A stretch of DNA of 64,000 nt from sequence record OK335775.1. One strand, 5' to 3'. Of this stretch, positions 2,416 through 64,000 are shown piece after piece; the stretch's first letter is position 1, and every line of letters starts with the position of its first letter. This DNA is from Escherichia phage PSD2002. The translations under genes and the position numbers were made by a program. The notes below the pieces were generated by a model. It was given only the letters and a program-made list of their open reading frames with translations, was not told where the DNA came from and made no database searches.

Positions 2416-4311
2416 ATGTCCGAACAATTGAATGAGGTATTTGATGGTGATATAAATTTATCTGCTGTCAATTTAAACCCTAAACTTAAAGTCCCACAGA
2501 TTTGGAATATAAAGGCTGAAGGTAACGAGAACCTTGTTGCCCGCATGGTTTCATATACTTCCGAAGGCGATGTAATTCGTCAGGTTAAGCCTGGTGACAA
2601 GTATGTTCATGTCGTTTTAATGAGCCTATCGGCTAAAGGTTCTCCTGCCGAACTCAAAGGTGGATTAGGTACCAATCCTATTTCCGCTATTCGTTCTATA
2701 TTTGATATCGTCTATGAACAGGTCAAGGCCCTTCGTATGGACGCTGTTATGTTCCGTTTTCCTACCAAGAAAATGAAAGGGCAGGAAAAAGCTATACAGA
2801 GGGTATTGGCTAAATTAATAGCCTCTAGAGCAGGCGGACAGTTTAAAGTTCTTGATGCCTTGTATCAATTCACCGGTAAGCATTCGTATGTTTTTATCTA
2901 TCGTAAAAATAAAAATATAGAATCTATAAATGGTATTCCTAATATTAATTTAGAATTGTATACTAAAGTCGAATCTGAAGTCGGTGACGTGTATGTTTCA
3001 AAGAAAACAGGCGAAGATGTTACCAAACTAGAAGCTATAGCTAAGTCCATAGACGAAATAGAAAAATCACGTTCTGATAAAACTGTTATAACCAAAACAA
3101 AGGTTTCTAAACGTGCTGCTATCAATGCTTTATATCCTACAGCAGAGCCTACAGGATTGAGTAAATTTTCGGCAGAGCACAAAAAAGCTTATGCAGATTA
3201 TTCTGCTACTAGTTCCGTTCATTCTTCTGAAGATTCTAAAGAAAGCCAAATAGCTTTAGCCAGTAATAAAATATTAAAAGACACCTCTAAAGAAATGGCA
3301 GAATATTTGGATTATATTTTTAACGGTGTTAATCCATCATTTGAAGTAGACGAGCGCAAACTTAAACTAATTGCTGATATAAAGTTTGCTTTAGAGGCAT
3401 CAGATTCTTTAGATAAATCTAATAGTGTCATAGAGGCTTTAAAATCAGGTAAATCTCATGTAGACATTCTTAGACTAGTCGCTGCGGCCCTTTTAGATGA
3501 TTCAGTTAAAGGTACTTGGGCTAGAGAATCTAAAATCAAGGAAGTAATAAAATCCTTAGTAGCAGTTTATACAAAATCTATCCAACCGTTGTTTAAGATA
3601 TCTGATAATCCTAATTTATCCAAACCTCAAGAAGAGGCAGTCAAAAAGTATACTCGTGGCGGCTACAACCATATAAACAACTTTTTGCTAGGTAAAACAG
3701 ATACCACCGATGAAATGATAAAAATGATTGGTGAGTTGGATTCTACATTTGAAAATGGTACAAAACTTCCTAAAGGAACCATAGTGTATCGTTCTCAGAT
3801 AATGCCTACCGAAATGGCTTTGAATTCTATAAAACATAAGGTGATGTATCTTCCTATTTTTGCATCAACTTCATTGGCTCCTAATATTTTCGGTGAAATG
3901 GGTCATGCTCAATCCAACTTAGACCCTGAAGCTCTTTCTAGCGATATAGATAGTAATCTTGAAGACACCATTAAAAGTGCGACCGGAAGTGCTAGAGATA
4001 CCATTAAGCTAGGGTTAATTATTAAAGGTGCTGATAAAATTAAGGTTATTGTGCCCGGTGACTTGGCTAATTGGTCTACAGAAACCGAAGTAATTCTTCC
4101 TCGTGGGGTTATGCTTAAGATTAATAAAGTATACGGTGCTTCCAAGGGACCTATGGGTTCAATTGGTAAATATGTTTTAGTGGAATGTGAAGTTGTAGCT
4201 ACCGAGCAAATCACAGAGGAAGATTCATATAGCACCGGATTCTCGTTTGGAAATTATGATAGAATTATGTATGAAGATTCTATGGAAAAATTAGCAAATT
4301 TATTTAAATAG
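2416..4311 (+). CDS. alt: Alt-like ADP-ribosyltransferase, paralog 1 (631 aa)
   Basis: RBS AAAGAGGAA; N-terminal block shared with the next two ORFs; C-terminal ART signatures VYRSQ, FASTSL, ETEVILPRG; position next to gene 30 as in T4. Confidence 0.8.
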   Translation: MSEQLNEVFDGDINLSAVNLNPKLKVPQIWNIKAEGNENLVARMVSYTSEGDVIRQVKPGDKYVHVVLMSLSAKGSPAELKGGLGTNPISAIRSIFDIVYEQVKALRMDAVMFRFPTKKMKGQEKAIQRVLAKLIASRAGGQFKVLDALYQFTGKHSYVFIYRKNKNIESINGIPNINLELYTKVESEVGDVYVSKKTGEDVTKLEAIAKSIDEIEKSRSDKTVITKTKVSKRAAINALYPTAEPTGLSKFSAEHKKAYADYSATSSVHSSEDSKESQIALASNKILKDTSKEMAEYLDYIFNGVNPSFEVDERKLKLIADIKFALEASDSLDKSNSVIEALKSGKSHVDILRLVAAALLDDSVKGTWARESKIKEVIKSLVAVYTKSIQPLFKISDNPNLSKPQEEAVKKYTRGGYNHINNFLLGKTDTTDEMIKMIGELDSTFENGTKLPKGTIVYRSQIMPTEMALNSIKHKVMYLPIFASTSLAPNIFGEMGHAQSNLDPEALSSDIDSNLEDTIKSATGSARDTIKLGLIIKGADKIKVIVPGDLANWSTETEVILPRGVMLKINKVYGASKGPMGSIGKYVLVECEVVATEQITEEDSYSTGFSFGNYDRIMYEDSMEKLANLFK

Positions 4312-6404: not shown

Positions 6405-8528
6405 ATGGAAAATTTAAATGAGGTTTTTGATAGTGATTCCGCTAAAAACTATCCAGTAACAAATCTTAAACCGGGTTCCGGTATTCCACAGATTTTCTCT
6501 ATCCAAGCACCAGGTAATGATAATCTGGTTGCTCGTATGGTATCTTATGCGTCTCAAGGAGACGCTATTAAAATGGTTAAGCCGGGCGACAAATATGTTC
6601 ATGTTATCTTAATGAGTTTATCTGCTAAAGGCGCTCCGGCAGAACTCAAGGGTGGTTTGGGTACCGATCCACTCGGTACACTGAACACCATTTTCGATAC
6701 CATATATGAACAAATAAACAAACTTAAAATGGACGCGGTTTTGTTCCGTTTCCCTACTAAGAAAATGAAAGGTAAAGGTCCTACCGTTCAGCGCGTATTA
6801 GCTCGCTTGGCTATGGCTCGTACCGGTGGTAAGTTTAAAGTTGTTGACGACATGTTCCAATTCAGCGGAAAACATACCTACGTTCTTTTAGTACGTCGTG
6901 GTGCTAGTATTGAAGATATCAAGGGTATGCCTGAAATTAATGCCGATCTTTATACTAAAGTTGAGTCTAAAGTTGGCGAAGTGTATGTTTCTAAGAAAAC
7001 CGGCCAGGCTGTAAGTAAGGTCGAAGCCGTAGCGGCATCTATTGCACAAGTTGAAGAGAAACGTACTGATAAGGCTGTCATTACTCGTACTAAGATTTCG
7101 CGTCGTATGGCAGCGGCGGCGCAGTATTCTACTGCTGAGCCTGAAACTTTGTCCTCTAAAGAATTGCAGGTTTATAACGAGTTTGAAGCTTCTGTACCGG
7201 TTCACACGGCTGAAGGCCCTGAGAACGAAGGTATTGAACAGATTAGTCAGAACTTTAAAAAAGGTGCCATTACTAAAATGCGTCAGGCTTCTCAGTTTAA
7301 ATCTAAGAGCGAGGACCTTGCCAACTTTAGATACACTATTGCTCTCACACACGCTTTAATGACTGATAGTAAATTTAAACTAAATTATGCTAATAGAGAT
7401 AAACAAGGGTTTGAAATTTACTCTAATAATATGGCATTTTTTAATACAGAAGTCGATAGACTTTTAAGTGGCCTTTCGCAAATCAATACAACCAATAGTC
7501 TGGATATTATTAAGAAAATTGTTAATAACCTGAGTACCCGTTTTAAGGGTTCCCCTTCAGAGAAAGCATCTAGAATTGCTTTCGCTATGGAAGCCGTTTA
7601 TAAACTGGTTAACGATTCTATTAGTGATGCATATGCTTATTCAGGCGAGCTCATTAAACCTAAGGACCTAACCAAAGATGAAAGCAATGCTATTATTGAA
7701 TATTGCGCGGCTGAATATGCTCCTATGAACTTATTCCTTTTAGGTAAACCTGAATCCGAAAACAATACAACGGCTATTAAATTGATTAAGGATTTAGACT
7801 CAGCATTTACTAAGGGTATTAAACTTCCTAAGGGTACTATTTTGTATCGTGGTCAGGATTTGCCATACAAAATTCTGCGCCATAATATCGATAACAAAAC
7901 ATTTTACTTTAAGAACTTTGTGTCAGCCTCATTAAAGCCTAACATCTTTGGTGAATTCGGTAAAAATTATATGGCCCTCGACAACCAAGCCGTTTTTGTT
8001 GGTGGTGAAGGTTCTTTGTCCTCCGCTGATGAGTTGTTTAAATTGGCTAGTGGTAGTTCATCTGATGTGGGTGAAGTCGATGACGAAGAGGTAGAATGGG
8101 AAGAAGACGAGTTTGGTAATCCAATTGCACCTGAAGGTCCTGCAGATAGAATTGCTGAAATTGGTATGGTTATTCGAGGTGCTGAAGCAGTTAAAGTTAT
8201 CGCTCCTGGTGACCTTACAGAATATGCCGAAGAAGCAGAAATTATCCTTCCGCGTGGATTATTGTTGAAGGTTGATAAAGTAGCGGCTTTTGCCATGAAT
8301 GATAGAGTATCTCACAAATACCTTATGGAAGCTACCGTAACGCCTCCTTCAGAGCTCAGCGAATCTGTTTACGATGGTGACCATTTGATGGAAACTGGTG
8401 AAGTTCGCCTGATGGATGGATTTAGTCAATTCTTGGTTAATGAATCCGTTTCTGAAAGCAACGAAGCTATGGAAATCCTTGCCGCGTCTTTGGATATCTC
8501 TTCTTTATCAAATAAATTCAAAATGTAG
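6405..8528 (+). CDS. alt: Alt-like ADP-ribosyltransferase, paralog 3 (707 aa)
   Basis: Same N-terminal block; C-terminal LYRGQ, FVSASL, EAEIILPRG; acidic insert (VDDEEVEWEEDEF). Confidence 0.8.
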   Translation: MENLNEVFDSDSAKNYPVTNLKPGSGIPQIFSIQAPGNDNLVARMVSYASQGDAIKMVKPGDKYVHVILMSLSAKGAPAELKGGLGTDPLGTLNTIFDTIYEQINKLKMDAVLFRFPTKKMKGKGPTVQRVLARLAMARTGGKFKVVDDMFQFSGKHTYVLLVRRGASIEDIKGMPEINADLYTKVESKVGEVYVSKKTGQAVSKVEAVAASIAQVEEKRTDKAVITRTKISRRMAAAAQYSTAEPETLSSKELQVYNEFEASVPVHTAEGPENEGIEQISQNFKKGAITKMRQASQFKSKSEDLANFRYTIALTHALMTDSKFKLNYANRDKQGFEIYSNNMAFFNTEVDRLLSGLSQINTTNSLDIIKKIVNNLSTRFKGSPSEKASRIAFAMEAVYKLVNDSISDAYAYSGELIKPKDLTKDESNAIIEYCAAEYAPMNLFLLGKPESENNTTAIKLIKDLDSAFTKGIKLPKGTILYRGQDLPYKILRHNIDNKTFYFKNFVSASLKPNIFGEFGKNYMALDNQAVFVGGEGSLSSADELFKLASGSSSDVGEVDDEEVEWEEDEFGNPIAPEGPADRIAEIGMVIRGAEAVKVIAPGDLTEYAEEAEIILPRGLLLKVDKVAAFAMNDRVSHKYLMEATVTPPSELSESVYDGDHLMETGEVRLMDGFSQFLVNESVSESNEAMEILAASLDISSLSNKFKM

Positions 8529-16962: not shown

Positions 16963-16990
16963 GGCCCTTCCGAAAGGTTGGGCCTTTTTT
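16963..16990 (+). terminator. rho-independent terminator GGCCCTTCCGAAAGGTTGGGCC + T6 (repeated element)
   Basis: GC stem plus T-run; near-identical copies at about 62337 and 62980. Confidence 0.6.
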
Positions 16991-27013: not shown

Positions 27014-27829
27014 TTAAGAAATTCGTGATGCTGCGATTGCAGACAGGTCCGCGAAGGACAGGGTAGGCTTAGCGCCTTTTTCTTCAACTGCTTCTGAAAT
27101 GTAATTCAGTGCCGCAGCATCGTCTACATTTTTATTTATAGCGGCTTCGGTGATTGGGTTTCCAACGTCAGACTGACCTTTAACCATTTCAACAATAGCG
27201 CCAATTTTTTTACCGAATGCATCGGAATAATCCATGCCTTCTACCAGAGAACTGACTTTTTCTTTTTGAGATTCGGTCAGGTCTTTAGTTGCTTCCGTAA
27301 CAGCAACTTCACGCTGTACGTAATTAATATACGCATCGCGCATACCAACTTCTTCGAACAGACGAGCGGTTTCATCTTTCTGCTCTTGGAGCTCTTCTTC
27401 CATTTCAGCAACAACATCTACTGCTTCTTCTGGAACAACCACATTGTGTTCAACAAACAGTTCTTTCATACCCATCAACATGGATTCGAAAAGTTCGGCT
27501 TTAATACCTTTATCAACAGCCAGCTGGTTTTCAGCCATCCATTCTTTAGCAACGTGGTCAAGGAAACGACCTGCAGCTTCTTGGATTTTCTTATCGGCTT
27601 TTTCTTCAGCTTCTTCTTTATTTTTCTCGACTTCTTCTTCCGCTTTTTCAGCGATTTTAGCGATGTGAGATTCAGCCAGTTTCACGGCGTGTTGCTTGAC
27701 GGTAGCTTCGAATACAGTGCCGAAAGTTTCTTTTGCTTCCGGAGAAATATTAACTGATTCGAAAATACTATCAAGAGCAACGGAAGCATCAATATTCTGT
27801 GCTTCGGCAATCAGTTGTTCTTTAAGCAT
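27014..27829 (-). CDS. 22: prohead core scaffold protein gp22
   Basis: 271 aa; acidic coiled-coil; N-terminus MLKEQLIAEAQ resembles T4 gp22; late promoter TATAAATA (complement of 27857-27864) upstream. Confidence 0.85.
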   Translation of the reverse strand: MLKEQLIAEAQNIDASVALDSIFESVNISPEAKETFGTVFEATVKQHAVKLAESHIAKIAEKAEEEVEKNKEEAEEKADKKIQEAAGRFLDHVAKEWMAENQLAVDKGIKAELFESMLMGMKELFVEHNVVVPEEAVDVVAEMEEELQEQKDETARLFEEVGMRDAYINYVQREVAVTEATKDLTESQKEKVSSLVEGMDYSDAFGKKIGAIVEMVKGQSDVGNPITEAAINKNVDDAAALNYISEAVEEKGAKPTLSFADLSAIAASRIS

Positions 27830-27859: not shown

Positions 27860-28495
27860 TTATAACGCTTTTTTCATGGCCTCTGCGAGAGCCATAAAGG
27901 CGTCATCGGCACTGGTATCGGTATCTACCGTTTGTGATTCTGTAATTTGCTTTGGAGTTACATAAGCATCAGGAGCAGATGGTCCCCATACTGCATCAAC
28001 ACCGACGGTTAATTTATAACCTTCGTTTACACGCTTATATCCTTTGTTGGTTTCGGTTAAAGAACCAAGACCACGAGAACTAACACCAGGAACCCAACCA
28101 GCACGGATATTTGCAGCTAGTTTATCACCCGGACCATGGTCACCTTCGATGATACGTGCACGTCCATAAACATCATTACCTTTCCACCACATATCTTCAA
28201 TAATGATAGCGGCTTGCATAGGGTCAACGTTAGCACGAGGTGGATGGTTTAATTCTCCTAAAGCTTGTTTAGTAGCAACCTGTTCTGCCATATAATCAGA
28301 AACGGCTTTTTCCAAAATAGGTTTTGGGTAAAGGCGTTTATTACGGTTAACTACCTCTGCTTGCATGAAAATGCCTTCTATATAAAGGCCGGGAGCAAGC
28401 CCAGAATTTTTTCCATCATGAGATTCCAACATAGGAACCCCATCGATAATTTCACCTGGTTGTCCCCAATGTTCGATGAGCAATTCAGGTTTCAT
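27860..28495 (-). CDS. 21: prohead protease gp21
   Basis: 211 aa (T4 gp21 212 aa); synteny 68-21-22. Confidence 0.85.
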   Translation of the reverse strand: MKPELLIEHWGQPGEIIDGVPMLESHDGKNSGLAPGLYIEGIFMQAEVVNRNKRLYPKPILEKAVSDYMAEQVATKQALGELNHPPRANVDPMQAAIIIEDMWWKGNDVYGRARIIEGDHGPGDKLAANIRAGWVPGVSSRGLGSLTETNKGYKRVNEGYKLTVGVDAVWGPSAPDAYVTPKQITESQTVDTDTSADDAFMALAEAMKKAL

Positions 28496-56030: not shown

Positions 56031-56075
56031 AGTGCCTCCGAGTATAAATAATATTAATATTTATAAGGAGGCACT
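56031..56075. promoter_or_regulatory. symmetric divergent late promoter region: TATAAATA on each strand flanked by 9-bp inverted repeat AGTGCCTCC/GGAGGCACT
   Basis: TATAAATA at 56043-56050 (+, gp4) and complement of 56058-56065 (gp53); the inverted repeat supplies GGAGG RBS to both genes. Confidence 0.6.
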
Positions 56076-59480: not shown

Positions 59481-59810
59481 ATGAAAACATATAACGAATT
59501 TGTACAAACTGAAGCAATTAATGAAGTAGCCATCCCTAAACCGGCTAAAGCTGACGGTACTGAGTACTACCATATTGAAACATCTTTTGATGCAGCTTCA
59601 GATATGGCTAACGGGCTTGGTGATTTCATCCGTCAAGCTAAGTCCGACCTGGCTAAATTTACAAAGACCCTTGATAAAGAGCAAAAGAAACCTTTCTCGG
59701 ATCTGGCTAAAAAACTGGACGCGTTAAATGACAAGGTCTTTAAAGAAGTTTACCACGGTATGATTGGTCTTACCCGTGAATTCAATGCTGAAGTTAAAAA
59801 ACTTCCCTAA
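59481..59810 (+). CDS. internal-protein-like gene 1 with capsid-targeting N-terminus (MKTYNEFVQTE...)
   Basis: N-terminus matches the T4 internal-protein capsid-targeting consensus MKTYQEFIAE; gp21-type (L/I)-x-E sites; position adjacent to 57B as T4 ipI. Confidence 0.7.
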   Translation: MKTYNEFVQTEAINEVAIPKPAKADGTEYYHIETSFDAASDMANGLGDFIRQAKSDLAKFTKTLDKEQKKPFSDLAKKLDALNDKVFKEVYHGMIGLTREFNAEVKKLP

Positions 59811-59820
59811 GTACAGATAA

Positions 59821-59841
59821 GGAGCCACAAAGCTCCTTTTT
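59821..59841 (+). terminator. stem-loop GGAGC-CACAAA-GCTCC + T5
   Basis: 5-bp GC-rich stem followed by TTTTT. Confidence 0.5.
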
Positions 59842-59858
59842 GTATCTAAACAAAAGGT

Positions 59859-59889
59859 GTTTACTTTCCTGGATAGCCGTGATACTATA
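59859..59889 (+). promoter_or_regulatory. early promoter cassette (GTTTAC ... TGATACTATAGCCCTATCAAAACAA)
   Basis: 32-nt core identical to the copy at 60443-60472. Confidence 0.55.
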
Positions 59890-59925
59890 GCCCTATCAAA
59901 ACAAACTAACCAAACGGAAATCAAA

Positions 59926-60150
59926 ATGAAAACTTATCAAGAATTTATTACCGAAGCTAAAAGACATGAAGATGAACTGCCAATTGTTACAAAAACCTTT
60001 GATGGCACACTGGCTGATTTTAAAAAAGTCCCTAGTGATAAGCTTGCTAAATTGACTGGCTCTATCAATGAAAAAGGTGGCAAGGTCACATTTTCTGCTC
60101 AAGGCACTGCCAATCTTAAAAAACTTTTGAAAGCCGCAGGCGTAGAATAA
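59926..60150 (+). CDS. internal-protein-like gene 2 (MKTYQEFITEAK...)
   Basis: Track ORF 59857..60150 begins at GTG inside the promoter; ATG at 59926 gives the MKTYQEF capsid-targeting N-terminus. Confidence 0.65.
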   Translation: MKTYQEFITEAKRHEDELPIVTKTFDGTLADFKKVPSDKLAKLTGSINEKGGKVTFSAQGTANLKKLLKAAGVE

Positions 60151-60151
60151 A

Positions 60152-60424
60152 ATGAAATCATACCAAGAATTTATCGCTGAATCTATTCTTAATGAAGAAG
60201 TAAAAATTAACAAATCTGTTAAGACCATGATTGATAATATAAATCATCTCTATAACATCGATTTGACTAATCACGTAACTTTAGGCAATAAGCGAAACTT
60301 TTTTGTATTTGATACTTCAGAACTTGACCAGAATCAAATTAACAATATTGAACGTTTTGCTAATGAAAAAGGGCTGCGCCACGAGACAGCCGGTTATAAA
60401 AAGTATGCAATTTATTTAAAATAA
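60152..60424 (+). CDS. internal-protein-like gene 3 (MKSYQEFIAESILNEE...)
   Basis: Capsid-targeting-like N-terminus with I-A-E and L-N-E gp21-type sites. Confidence 0.65.
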   Translation: MKSYQEFIAESILNEEVKINKSVKTMIDNINHLYNIDLTNHVTLGNKRNFFVFDTSELDQNQINNIERFANEKGLRHETAGYKKYAIYLK

Positions 60425-61060: not shown

Positions 61061-61351
61061 ATGTTATACGTTAAGGTTACTAATCCAGAGAATGGATATA
61101 ATTCAGACCAGGTTGCAGCAGAGCTACTGATTCGCAACTTTGGCAAAGGTGCTGTGCTTGATGTCCAACAGGTTAATATTGGTCGTAGTTCAAGCGACGT
61201 TAAACTAAAAGTTAACGGTCGCCGTTATAATTCTGTTAACTTTACTTTCTACACCGCAACTGAAAACGGGTTGGTCGAATACGACATCTTTAAAAATCCT
61301 TTGAAGATTGCTTCTATTAAACTTGATTACATTAATATGTGGCCACAATGA
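61061..61351 (+). CDS. hypothetical protein (96 aa)
   Basis: Track ORF, ATG start immediately after previous stop. Confidence 0.5.
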   Translation: MLYVKVTNPENGYNSDQVAAELLIRNFGKGAVLDVQQVNIGRSSSDVKLKVNGRRYNSVNFTFYTATENGLVEYDIFKNPLKIASIKLDYINMWPQ

Positions 61352-61525
61352 ACCAAATTTGACCAGACTATTCCTAAAAATAGTAATATGCTTTAAGAGT
61401 AATGTGTTATTATTACTCTATCATTAATACCCTCTATTACCAAAGGTTCTTCCCTCAAAGAACCTTTCATAATAGACAAGGTCTATTAATCAAACTTACT
61501 TTACTTAATTTTATTTGAGGTGTTT

Positions 61526-61792
61526 ATGTTAGTATTAAAATTAGCTTTTTATGACCCGGCAACCAAGACAACAACAACCAAACGTTGTTCTATTTCATAT
61601 GAATGTCAATTTGGTGAAGTTGAGACCGACGGCGGGCCCTTTATGGCAATTGCCGATAGCACATTCGCTAAACCAAAAATAATTCCACTAGTTAACGCTG
61701 CGGCTTATCTGGTTGCTCCTGAAGAAATGACTTATCACACAATTCAGCACATGGCTAAAGATGATAATGCTCCTGCTGGATTTGTAGTTTAA
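61526..61792 (+). CDS. hypothetical protein (88 aa)
   Basis: Track ORF 61520..61792 begins at GTG; ATG at 61526 follows GAGG. Confidence 0.5.
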   Translation: MLVLKLAFYDPATKTTTTKRCSISYECQFGEVETDGGPFMAIADSTFAKPKIIPLVNAAAYLVAPEEMTYHTIQHMAKDDNAPAGFVV

Positions 61793-61797
61793 ATTAA

Positions 61798-61874
61798 GGC
61801 CCTGTAGCTCAATGGTTAGCAGCAGTCCCCTCATAAGGGAAAGGTTACCAGTTCAAATCTGGTCCGGGTCACCA
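61798..61874 (+). tRNA. tRNA with CAU anticodon (Ile2 or Met), non-canonical D-stem
   Basis: Hand fold: acceptor GGCCCTG/CCGGGTC (one mismatch, one G-U), anticodon loop CTCATAA, T-arm ACCAG-TTCAAAT-CTGGT, encoded CCA. Confidence 0.6.
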
Positions 61875-61879
61875 ACTAT

Positions 61880-61954
61880 GTCCCGCTGGTGTAATGGATA
61901 GCATACGATCCTTCTAAGTTTGCGGTCCTGGTTCGATCCCAGGGCGGGATACCA
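61880..61954 (+). tRNA. tRNA-Arg (anticodon UCU)
   Basis: Hand fold: acceptor GTCCCGC/GCGGGAT, D-loop AATGGATA, anticodon loop CTTCTAA, T-arm CCTGG-TTCGATC-CCAGG, encoded CCA; T4 also encodes a tRNA-Arg(UCU). Confidence 0.75.
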
Positions 61955-62335
61955 AATGAAGACTATTATATAGTCAAGCCGTCGTATGAAGACTGATTAC
62001 CAGCATTCACCGGCGCAACAAACAAGAAACCGGGTCGCTACCGGTAAGTCGTCGGACTGATGTTCCCTGAGTAAGGACTGGCATTAACAAATCTTTACGA
62101 TCTGTTAACGTTCCCTTACATCACAGCAGAAACGGCGCACCGAATTATCGATTCGAGGAAATATCTTTGCCGTAAGCCGAGTAGCGTTTTTGACGGAACG
62201 TTCGGATATGGTCGAGATATGGCCTTTTAAAAATATTGAGTGGCGTCAACTACTTAATAACCGGGTTCGAATCCCGGCGTTTCGTACAAACACTTGCCTA
62301 GCAGGTGGAACCCCGACAAGGTTACCCTAGGTTAA
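61955..62335 (+). ncRNA. candidate stable small RNA(s) with tRNA-like T-arm (position of T4 rnaC/rnaD); boundaries uncertain
   Basis: About 380 nt with no ORF over 24 codons, immediately after tRNA-Arg and ending at a terminator; contains CCGGG-TTCGAAT-CCCGG at 62261-62277 and a possible 7-bp acceptor pairing 62194-62200 with 62278-62284. Confidence 0.3.
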
Positions 62336-62336
62336 A

Positions 62337-62364
62337 GGCCCTTCCGAAAGGTTGGGCTTTTTTT
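62337..62364 (+). terminator. terminator GGCCCTTCCGAAAGGTTGGGC + T7 (variant of the repeated element)
   Basis: GC stem plus T-run; copy of the motif at 16963 and 62980. Confidence 0.55.
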
Positions 62365-62365
62365 G

Positions 62366-62373
62366 TATAAATA
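62366..62373 (+). promoter_or_regulatory. late promoter TATAAATA upstream of internal-protein-like gene 4
   Basis: Exact TATAAATA 26 nt before the ATG at 62400. Confidence 0.5.
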
Positions 62374-62399
62374 TGTAGTAAACTAACTTAGGAAATAAT

Positions 62400-62864
62400 A
62401 TGAAAACTTACAATGAATTTTTGACTGAACAATCTAGTTCAGATGTAAAAGCCGCTGCTATTGCAGCAATTCAAGCAGGTAAATATTCTTACAAAGACGC
62501 CTCTGATGAAGAACGTTTCCGTTTTATTAAAGATTTTAAAGCCGAAGGTTTTACTAATGCTAATACTGTTAGCCGAGTTTTTAAAAGCCTAGCTGCATCA
62601 GGTGAATTGTTCCAGAAAGCTACAGGTAAAGCACCTGCGTCAAAAGCGGACCCTAAAGCCGCTCAAGAAAAAAATATCGCCAAAGGAATTATTTCTAAGT
62701 ATGAAGCAATTCTTAAAGAGCTTTTAGTAATCAAAACAGAAGGCCAGAAACTGGCACGAGCACATAGCTTCAAAGATAATCCACATGCTCACGACTTAGA
62801 GTATGTTGAAGATATTCAGAAAATCATCAAAGACCGTATCTGGTCTGCTAAACAAATCAAATAA
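62400..62864 (+). CDS. internal-protein-like gene 4 (MKTYNEFLTEQ...)
   Basis: Capsid-targeting-like N-terminus with L-T-E gp21-type site; late promoter. Confidence 0.65.
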   Translation: MKTYNEFLTEQSSSDVKAAAIAAIQAGKYSYKDASDEERFRFIKDFKAEGFTNANTVSRVFKSLAASGELFQKATGKAPASKADPKAAQEKNIAKGIISKYEAILKELLVIKTEGQKLARAHSFKDNPHAHDLEYVEDIQKIIKDRIWSAKQIK

Positions 62865-62866
62865 CG

Positions 62867-62888
62867 AAAGCCCCAGATGGGGCTTTTT
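62867..62888 (+). terminator. stem-loop AGCCCC-AGAT-GGGGCT + T5
   Basis: Perfect 6-bp stem followed by TTTTT directly after the stop codon. Confidence 0.6.
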
Positions 62889-62979
62889 GGTTAACTTAGA
62901 GAAATATATGAAACTTTTAAAATAAAGCTATGTTAGCCTTCCACATAAACCCATTCCGGTTCTACAAGAACTGATTCTA

Positions 62980-63007
62980 GGCCCTTCCGAAAGGTTGGGC
63001 CTTTTTT
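62980..63007 (+). terminator. terminator GGCCCTTCCGAAAGGTTGGGCC + T6 (repeated element)
   Basis: Identical to the element at 16963. Confidence 0.6.
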
Positions 63008-63030
63008 GTTTCTAAAAAGTTTAAAAAGTT

Positions 63031-63060
63031 GTTTACACCTCCTTTAAACATGATACTATA
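63031..63060 (+). promoter_or_regulatory. early promoter cassette (GTTTACA ... TGATACTATAGACCTATCAAAACAA)
   Basis: Third copy of the conserved early-promoter core. Confidence 0.55.
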
Positions 63061-63094
63061 GACCTATCAAAACAACAGAGTGAAGGAGAGTAAA

Positions 63095-63358
63095 ATGGAT
63101 AATTATGGTGAATTGTTTAATTTCTTTATGAAATGCGTTCCGGAAGAATTTGGTGCTACAGTTAACGATATTAAAGTTATCGGTCCTGAACACCCGGTGT
63201 ATGAAACCTATGCAGTAATGGGTAATGAAGATGGACAGTGGTATACAATTAAAGTTGTGATTAATATGTTCTCAGCTGAAGGTTACGCCAAATCGTCTAC
63301 CAAAGTTTACCATGGTAATGATTTTGATGCAGAAAATTATTTCAATAATATGAAATAA
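63095..63358 (+). CDS. hypothetical protein (87 aa)
   Basis: Track ORF 63080..63358 begins at GTG; ATG at 63095 follows GAAGGAGAG. Confidence 0.5.
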   Translation: MDNYGELFNFFMKCVPEEFGATVNDIKVIGPEHPVYETYAVMGNEDGQWYTIKVVINMFSAEGYAKSSTKVYHGNDFDAENYFNNMK

Positions 63359-63361
63359 AAC

Positions 63362-63397
63362 GTTTACATGGGCTCATGATTAAGATATTATGAGCCC
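63362..63397 (+). promoter_or_regulatory. early promoter (GTTTACA, 17-bp spacer, TATTAT) with 8-bp inverted repeat across spacer and -10
   Basis: GGGCTCAT at 63370-63377 pairs with ATGAGCCC at 63390-63397. Confidence 0.45.
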
Positions 63398-63416
63398 ATA
63401 ATTTGAGGAGAACATA

Positions 63417-63815
63417 ATGAATATCGAAGATAAAGAAATGCAAGAGTTGTATAATTCATTAACACCTGAACAACAAAAATATGCCAAAGAACTAGAGAAA
63501 GCTCTTACTTTCAACTTGGCAAAAACTGATTGGGCCGCGATGTATGAAGAAAAAACTAGATTAGAAATTGAAGCTGCTGAGAGAAATGAATGGGTTGTCG
63601 AAACCAAGATTTCTGATGGTGGTTGCTCTGTTGAGGTGTCAGCTGTAGTTAAAGGTACCCATGGCGAAAAATCATGGGGCTGGCATAATGAAGCAAACAA
63701 ATGTATTGTTCTCTCAACGTCAAAAACTTATGGGCAAAGGGCTCCTGTATCCAAAGCTATTATTAAGCAAGCTCAATGGGAAGCCAATGAAATTTGCCTC
63801 GCAAAAATGAAATAA
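63417..63815 (+). CDS. hypothetical protein (132 aa)
   Basis: Track ORF with ATG and GAGGAG RBS; no recognisable motif. Confidence 0.5.
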   Translation: MNIEDKEMQELYNSLTPEQQKYAKELEKALTFNLAKTDWAAMYEEKTRLEIEAAERNEWVVETKISDGGCSVEVSAVVKGTHGEKSWGWHNEANKCIVLSTSKTYGQRAPVSKAIIKQAQWEANEICLAKMK

Positions 63816-63819
63816 AAAT

Positions 63820-63855
63820 GTTTACAACCCTCAGAGGACAGGGTATAATGTCCTC
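63820..63855 (+). promoter_or_regulatory. early promoter (GTTTACA, 17-bp spacer, TATAAT) with 7-bp inverted repeat flanking the -10
   Basis: GAGGACA at 63834-63840 pairs with TGTCCTC at 63849-63855. Confidence 0.45.
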
Positions 63856-63891
63856 ATGGATTATAAATCTTAATCAACTGAAGGAAATACT

Positions 63892-64000
63892 ATGAACACT
63901 TTAAAGAAAATCGTTGAATTCATCCGTTCTAAACTGGGTACCGCAATGACTCAGAACCTGTCAATCGAAGACCAATACACCAAAGCGGCTTCTACCCTGA
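63892..64000 (+). CDS. hypothetical protein, 3'-truncated at window edge
   Basis: ATG at 63892 after GAAGGAAA; frame open to the end of the window ([16 protein letters not shown]...). Confidence 0.4.

Follow-up and report, generated by a model that had tools for sequence, protein, structure and literature searches.

The 154-aa open reading frame (ORF) located between the rnaC region and the e.8 homologue of Escherichia phage PSD2002 probably encodes a T4-type internal protein (Ip), a member of a previously unlabelled Ip family that occupies a third genomic locus. This protein would be made only late in infection, directed into the prohead by its capsid-targeting sequence (CTS), trimmed by gp21, packaged, and injected. 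The window analysed here, a 64,000-nucleotide stretch of sequence record OK335775.1, is from a T4-like member of the genus Dhakavirus; over positions 61300-64000, it shares 98% identity with phages E33, WG01, and QL01. The presence of a shared Ip leader on unrelated protein bodies has been known. The new aspects are the recognition of phrog_2280, the family of the 154-aa protein (E = 6e-53; annotated as 'unknown function'), as a probable Ip family, its location at a third site, and a late promoter of its own that adjoins a repeated terminator stem-loop.

The gene order on the plus strand of this region (gp3, gp1, 57A, 57B, three ip genes, trna.4-, trna.3- and trna.2-like ORFs, tRNA-Met at 61798, tRNA-Arg at 61880, rnaD/rnaC homologues, the 154-aa ORF, and the e.8 homologue) is the T4 order (Table 1). 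As stated in the initial annotation, the 154-aa gene is set apart from the three ip genes by the tRNA region, which comprises the two tRNA genes and is followed by the rnaD/rnaC homologues, and the exact late promoter TATAAATA lies ahead of the ORF that begins with MKTYNEFLTEQ, with the promoter, the ATG and the protein length all confirmed to the nucleotide or residue. The promoter directly abuts the T-run of the upstream terminator and is separated from the ATG by 26 nt. The stretch between the terminator and the ATG contains neither a -35 box nor a MotA box, and no GTTTAC[AT] box was found within 120 nt of the ORF. The upstream terminator is also present in T4, T2, T6, PST, RB18, and fD1. 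Judging from the sequence, it is the end of the tRNA/rnaC unit and apparently insulates the 154-aa gene from early and middle transcription; terminator read-through could give some early expression. Because the gene is followed by a terminator of its own, it forms a monocistronic unit.

Table 1. Features of the 154-aa gene, its neighbourhood, the ipI-locus cluster and the head-maturation genes in the 64-kb window.
Feature	Position	Strand	Evidence or remark
gp22 scaffold	27014-27829	-	Pfam T4_CASP, E = 8e-90
gp21 prohead protease	27860-28495	-	Pfam Peptidase_S77, E = 3e-103
ip gene cluster (ipI locus)	59481-59810, 59926-60150, 60152-60424	+	phrog_7857, phrog_8765, phrog_7673, all 'internal virion/head protein'
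Homologues of T4 stable RNAs rnaD and rnaC (species 2 and 1)	62027-62293	+	near-identical by eye to the NC_000866 annotation
Upstream intrinsic terminator, GAAA loop and T-run	62334-62365 (hairpin 62334-62361)	+	MFE -15.1 kcal/mol, z = -2.6
Late promoter TATAAATA	62366-62373	+	exact match; T4-type, gp55/gp33-dependent class
5' leader, short, unstructured	62374-62399	+	MFE 0 kcal/mol
Shine-Dalgarno AGGA	62390-62393	+	sequence
CDS, 154 aa, phrog_2280	62400-62864 (ATG at 62400; stop codon ends at 62864)	+	ORF begins MKTYNEFLTEQ
Predicted CTS, codons 1-10, MKTYNEFLTE	62400-62429	+	ends in predicted gp21 site L-T-E, cut before Q11
Terminator of the 154-aa gene, hairpin and T-run	62866-62892	+	MFE -14.5 kcal/mol, z = -3.6
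Second copy of the upstream terminator (30/31 nt)	62979-63009	+	followed by early promoter 63032-63059

The gene is bracketed by a direct repeat that consists of two terminator copies (62336-62366 and 62979-63009), the second of which, together with the early promoter, makes up a PeSL-type (promoter-early stem-loop) cassette for the e.8 homologue at 63095. The 21-nt core of this terminator, GGCCCTTCCGAAAGGTTGGGC, occurs three times on the plus strand (16963-16983, 62337-62357, and 62980-63000) vs 0 expected; the copy at 16963 is distant from the tRNA region and is flanked by genes that converge on it. Recombination of the PeSL kind may use the repeated core as a substrate. In the same neighbourhood, about 70 nt between tRNA-Arg and the rnaD homologue (61955-62026) are absent from T4 and contain the short direct repeat ATGAAGACT twice. 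The rnaD/rnaC homologues matched no family in Rfam 15; given that this release has no rnaC/rnaD family, RNA scans and most annotations of related phages omit them.

The leader of the 154-aa protein bears all the residues on which a T4-type CTS is known to depend. In the summary of work on T4 IPIII in PMC9026906, the first 10 residues are described as sufficient for head targeting, with the targeting information residing at positions 4 and 7 and processing governed by positions 8 and 10, and gp21 is described as cleaving after L/I-x-E. The CTS alone brings foreign proteins into heads (PMC3012670, PMC9026906). The sequence MKTYNEFLTE contains Tyr4, Phe7, Leu8, and Glu10, that is, all four determinants mapped in T4 IPIII, and is identical to the IPII/IPIII CTS, MKTYQEFIAE, in 7 of the 10 positions. 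The pattern M..[YF]..F[LI].E starts only three ORFs of at least 40 aa in the six frames (at 59926, 60152, and 62400), and the other two carriers are PHROG-annotated internal protein genes.

Distant members of the family, at 27-34% identity, were found in Klebsiella phage vB_Kp_M198, Yersinia Tegunavirus fHe-Yen9-01, Serratia Muldoonvirus PS2, Kosakonia Winklervirus Kc304, and metagenomic sequences. Even at this level of divergence, the family keeps an aromatic residue at position 4, Phe7, Leu or Val at position 8, and Glu10 (leaders MKFKEFLAE, MLQYNEFLKE, MLEYSEFLKE, MKSFNSFLNE, and MLKFNEFLAE). Every phrog_2280 member examined has the two residues needed for targeting (positions 4 and 7), and among the distant members no other short feature is conserved as persistently as the leader. 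The leader codons differ between these, so that selection apparently acts on the peptide rather than on a shared stretch of DNA. Thus, the capsid-targeting-like start with an L-T-E site that was proposed originally is supported both by the four mapped residues and by the retention of the leader across the family.

The machinery that would recognize this leader is encoded in the same window, where gp20 (portal), gp67, gp68, gp23, and gp24 adjoin gp22 and gp21. In this phage, gp23 carries GSFLTE/AEIGG and gp24 carries MAKINELLRE/S, which, going by T4, we take to be maturation sites (at the slash); both sites are conserved. The gp23 site shares F-L-T-E with the 154-aa ORF, which places the F-L-T-E of the latter in a substrate context of the resident gp21 protease. 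The residue that follows the predicted cut in the 154-aa protein (P1'), Gln11, is unusual: the T4 sites compared have Ala or Ser, and most phrog_2280 orthologues have Ala, Gly, or Ser in this position. In the orthologue from phage fD1 (Gp140), the sequence from Ala11 onward reads AVLNEASSTEIQ... There is a second L-x-E in the body, Leu105-Lys106-Glu107, located inside a predicted long helix, where the product could be cut further.

The mature form predicted after cleavage at Glu10 consists of 144 aa (15.9 kDa), with a pI of 9.5, a net charge of +7, and 14.6% Lys, which falls within the range of T4 IPI*, IPII*, and IPIII* (13.2-15.6% Lys, pI 9.0-9.7). In the AlphaFold2 model (mean pLDDT 72.6), the protein is all-helical, with disordered leader residues 1-9, a three-helix N-domain (13-67, pLDDT 80-90), a low-confidence linker rich in Lys, Ala, and Pro (K/A/P; 73-84), and a C-terminal helical hairpin (85-151). 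The bodies of the family share the N-domain motif GKYSYKD.SDESRFQFARDMKAEGF; the linker varies in sequence but is always K/A/P-rich, and the helical C-domain comes in at least two versions. According to the statement cited in PMC3012670, solid-state NMR indicates that internal-protein lysines contact DNA phosphates; by analogy, the Lys-rich linker of the 154-aa protein fits such contacts and might bind DNA.

Searches of PDB and BFVD yielded no match outside the phrog_2280 family, nor did the body resemble any Ip or anti-defence protein that has been characterised. In tblastn comparisons with the ip genes of T4, T2, and T6, only the 10-residue leader matched. The body was initially described as devoid of recognisable motifs and, indeed, no known family or fold could be assigned to it. 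A distant homology to IPII (tblastn E = 0.03-0.09) was driven by the leader and was rejected, with a leaderless hhalign probability of 0.8%.

Homologues of phrog_2280 were detected by tblastn in about 511 phage records, all of them T4-like phages infecting E. coli, Shigella, Klebsiella, Yersinia, and Serratia; about 70 of these match at 90% identity or higher, and about 400 Tequatrovirus records match at 60-80%. Forty records drawn from across the 511 matches were sampled, and each of them annotates the gene as hypothetical or as an unnamed feature, never as an Ip. In RB18, for example, the orthologue goes by the name 'RB32ORF132c, hypothetical protein', and its gene lies in the interval from the rnaC region to e.8. 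When 1.84 billion representative proteins were searched exhaustively with a family profile, only 10 were retrieved, which were phrog_2280 family members, chimeric predictions including part of the family, or, in one case, a weak repeat-protein match. Three metagenomic proteins (P0009, P0013, and P0014) consist of parts of the family fused to unrelated sequence; P0009 combines a trna.3-like N-terminus with the last 31 residues of the 154-aa protein. These fusions are either deletion variants of the tRNA region or assembly chimeras.

Among the genomes compared, the gene is absent from T2, T4, T6, PST, and phiR1-RT. The virion proteomics of phiR1-RT (PMC6893735) was ruled out as evidence on packaging given that this phage lacks the gene, and the fPS-phage paper reports no proteomic data. 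The gene-less Tequatrovirus alleles of T4, T6, T2, and PST share the junction ...GGGGCTTTTTGGTAT/CTARGCC (about 6830-6850 of the T4 locus sequence; the slash marks the break), where RB18 reads GGTATAAATA. These alleles retain GGTAT and have lost AAATA; of the late promoter, nothing beyond its initial three bases is left. The shared junction suggests, at the level of sequence, a single ancestral replacement event with a break inside the late promoter. At the corresponding locus of fHe-Yen9-01, there are two diverged tandem paralogues, both CTS-bearing (1922-2491 and 2501-3037 of the locus sequence), behind one late promoter. In PS2, a small unrelated ORF starting with MKSFNEFINE (1235-1453 of the locus sequence) precedes the homologue, again with one late promoter. 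It seems that genes for capsid-targeted proteins accumulate at the site between rnaC and e.8. That the classical T-even phages lack the gene, and that it lies outside the two known ip loci, plausibly explains why its putative Ip identity went unseen. In the literature (searched for ORF132c, MKTYQEF, and recent Ip catalogues), we found no paper that describes the phrog_2280 family as an Ip.

Evidence from virions comes from the orthologue in phage fD1, which infects Yersinia and E. coli. The product of g140 (Gp140; 157 aa, about 75% identical to the 154-aa protein) was classified as 'PPAP' at the strict threshold in LC-MS/MS of purified virions, and the adjacent e.8 homologue g139 as well as g138 were not detected in the particles (PMC8309999 Table S3). 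The fD1 particle list is unspecific, comprising 113-137 of the 277 gene products (41-49%), including DenV, lysozyme e, and NudE (PMC8309999), so the detection of Gp140 lends weak support to packaging. Taken with the leader, it is consistent with the likely presence of the 154-aa protein in the head.

The presence of many non-structural proteins on the fD1 list raises the alternative that the 154-aa protein is late but unpackaged, an assembly, lysis-timing or DNA-handling factor, in which case the CTS resemblance would be accidental and the mass-spectrometric detection of the orthologue would reflect carry-over from the lysate. The uninformative annotation of the family is compatible with such a role, and the K/A/P linker and helical hairpin of the model would also suit an intracellular DNA-binding protein. 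We nevertheless consider this alternative unlikely. A CTS bearer made late should be packaged, whether 'intended' or not, the leader residues are kept at 27-34% overall identity, and Gp140 passed the strict threshold while the products of both neighbouring genes were missing from the particles.

If the protein does enter the prohead, it might be an accessory of the core or scaffold akin to gp67 and gp68 that enters via its leader, is degraded by gp21, and is expelled, so that it is neither retained nor injected. Late-only expression, as for scaffold genes, would agree with this possibility, as would the second L-x-E at 105-107 and the resemblance of the modelled all-helical, coiled-coil-like C-terminal half to scaffold proteins. 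Such a role appears quite improbable all the same: core proteins are universal but this gene is dispensable, being missing from T2, T4, T6, and PST; the gene is not placed among the head genes; there is a single internal site, and it falls within a predicted long helix; and peptides of the orthologue occur in mature fD1 virions.

Late-only expression of this putative Ip is predicted from the promoter, which is conserved across relatives. A hairpin with a T-run followed by TATAAATA is found ahead of the gene at -34 in the window, -44 in RB18, -48 in fD1, and -44 in Klebsiella phage vB_Kp_M198. In fHe-Yen9-01, the hairpin and TATAAATA are located at -38, before the first of the two tandem paralogues, and in PS2 they are at -248, directly before the extra small ORF. 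Altogether, the layout recurs in six genera: Dhakavirus, Tequatrovirus, Tegunavirus, Muldoonvirus, that of the T4-like Klebsiella phage, and Winklervirus, the last with 7 of the 8 promoter positions matching. The promoter is exact in 7 of the 10 distinct homologous loci and matches in 7 of 8 positions in the remaining three (AATAAATA twice and CATAAATA once, in Kosakonia phage Kc304). A scan of IMG/VR, which yielded no more than seven loci, mostly from phages already in the comparison, contributed three of the exact cases of TATAAATA and the two AATAAATA variants.

The exact 8-mer occurs in the 64-kb window four times on the plus strand and 18 times on both strands, compared to 6.96 expected from shuffles. 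The expectation is about 5.4e-5 per strand position (6.96 per 128,000, from shuffles) which puts the chance of encountering TATAAATA in the 60 nt ahead of any one start codon at about 0.003.

The canonical ip genes present the opposite picture. Among the 17 such genes examined in T2, T4, T6, RB18, PST, and this window, there is no case of an exact TATAAATA within 120 nt, and a GTTTAC[AT] early -35 box stands 60-90 nt upstream of 12 of them. Because the situation is reversed in the 154-aa ORF, the contrast between its late promoter and the early-type promoters of the ip genes, originally noticed in this window, is real and general. For the window itself, the initial annotation placed all three ip genes behind early cassettes. 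This is correct for the genes at 59926 and 60152, which follow a stem-loop and early-promoter cassette at 59819-59890, the same one that fronts the trna.4-like gene and e.8, but not for the gene at 59481, which starts 7 nt past the stop codon of 57B and has no promoter of its own. This first ip gene (59481-59810) also has a divergent leader, MKTYNEFVQTEAINE, with Val at position 8 and a residue other than Glu at position 10, so that L/I-x-E first occurs at residues 13-15; a late-promoter-like sequence with a 7/8 match, TATAAAGA, lies 52 nt upstream, inside 57B. The closest exact late promoter upstream of the ip cluster on the plus strand is at 56043, so late expression of the cluster must come from distant read-through. 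At 56043-56065, exact late promoters are arranged back to back, 56043 (+) and 56058 (-), in the divergent region that separates the gene 4/2/3 block from the baseplate genes, an arrangement also seen in T4.

It could be argued that TATAAATA is fortuitous or non-functional and that read-through from the tRNA operon drives the 154-aa gene at early, middle, and late times, as with the other ip genes, given that the T4 tRNA cluster is transcribed throughout infection, intrinsic terminators leak, and only 7/8 promoters are found at some orthologous loci, but this is very unlikely in view of the small chance probability of the 8-mer in those 60 nt, its recurrence at -34 to -48 in four further lineages with diverged surroundings, its displacement in PS2 together with the extra upstream CTS-bearing ORF, and the break of the gene-less T2, T4, T6, and PST alleles exactly within the motif.

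The view that different timing of proteins destined for the same compartment would be unexpected, voiced in the initial annotation, is overstated. Late synthesis is what one would expect of a prohead component, and it is the early synthesis of the Ips that is odd: T4 IPI, IPII, and IPIII are made in large amounts both early and late (PMC6071114). A late-only Ip is a regulatory departure from the canonical Ips and yet has the timing natural for a component of the prohead.

Under the preferred reading, in which the 154-aa protein is a late, injected Ip, the following scenario can be proposed. After the onset of replication, RNA polymerase with gp55/gp33 would start transcription a few nucleotides downstream of 62373, and the upstream terminator would exclude the early and middle transcripts of the tRNA operon. 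The 154-aa precursor would then enter the scaffold core via the 10-residue CTS, with Tyr4 and Phe7 as the targeting residues, and would be cleaved by the gp21 prohead protease after Leu8-Thr9-Glu10. The basic, Lys-rich product of 144 aa (about 16 kDa) would stay with the DNA in the head, possibly through the K/A/P linker, and would be injected together with it. In the next host, by analogy with Ip1, Ip2, and Ip3, which act against GmrSD enzymes, it would most likely neutralise a host defence. A broader version of this proposal, which we put forward only tentatively, holds that the segment from the tRNA/rnaC unit to e.8 is a third cargo locus for late-only, capsid-targeted injected proteins, where the phrog_2280 family, with its conserved three-helix N-domain, histone-H1-like K/A/P linker, and variable helical C-domain, would enter along with the DNA and disarm a defence other than the GmrSD enzymes targeted by Ip1-3. 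If true, a third cargo locus would explain differences in host range between the phages of the roughly 500 carrier records and T2, T4, and T6.

Several implications follow. Since 2022-2025, all three T4 Ips have been tied to overcoming host barriers (PMC12373910, PMC9391042), and a reservoir of further injected anti-defence proteins is expected among the Ips that remain. The phrog_2280 family is a widespread and cheap candidate for host-range and anti-defence screens, and many of its carriers are therapy candidates. Its predicted late-only control offers a natural contrast to the canonical Ips, whose heavy synthesis early in infection is unexplained (PMC6071114), and the junction of a stem-loop with a late promoter extends the idea of cassette shuffling by PeSL to late genes.

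Among the known systems, the closest are IPII, IPIII, and the other T-even Ips (Ip4-Ip7, among others), with which the 154-aa protein shares a leader with targeting residues at positions 4 and 7 and a gp21 motif L/I-x-E at 8-10, a small, basic, Lys-rich (predicted) mature product, and a non-essential, variably present gene. Its body is unrelated to those of other Ips, just as these are unrelated among themselves (PMC12373910). Unlike the genes of these proteins, which occupy the 57B-ipI and e-ipIII/ipII loci ('the two Ip loci', in the wording of PMC12373910), its gene lies at a third one, in the interval from rnaC to e.8, and has an exact late promoter of its own and no early promoter. The 154-aa protein is also longer than most Ips, and position 8 is Leu or Val in the phrog_2280 members seen, unlike Ile8 in most named Ips. 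The leader belongs to the same class as that of T4 IPI (Ip1), and the same logic of injected cargo is predicted; the IPI leader, however, has 19 residues, there is no similarity between the bodies, and IPI* is an alpha/beta protein (PMC3012670) as opposed to the all-helical model of the 154-aa protein. Each of Ip1, Ip2, and Ip3 targets a different GmrSD type IV restriction enzyme for inhibition (PMC12373910), and on E. coli strain ECOR17 the phage depends on IPIII (PMC9391042); comparison with these three GmrSD inhibitors revealed no relationship in sequence or fold. With gp67, gp68, and Alt, the 154-aa protein would have in common late synthesis, location in the head interior, and gp21 processing at L/I-x-E, all predicted in its case; it has no sequence similarity to them, and their genes belong to the head-gene block whereas its own is a dispensable gene in a hyperplastic region. 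Finally, the bracketing of the gene by two 31-nt terminator stem-loops resembles the PeSL cassettes (Arbiol 2010, Comeau 2014, PMC4122927), an arrangement proposed to mediate the gain and loss of accessory genes (PMC4122927). In PMC4122927, early (PeSL) and middle (PmSL) versions are described and a late version is not mentioned. The downstream copy before e.8 (62979-63059) is a true PeSL. The upstream copy falls outside the PeSL definition, which includes a sigma-70-like early promoter directly after the stem-loop and a Shine-Dalgarno sequence, in that its stem-loop is joined to a late promoter.
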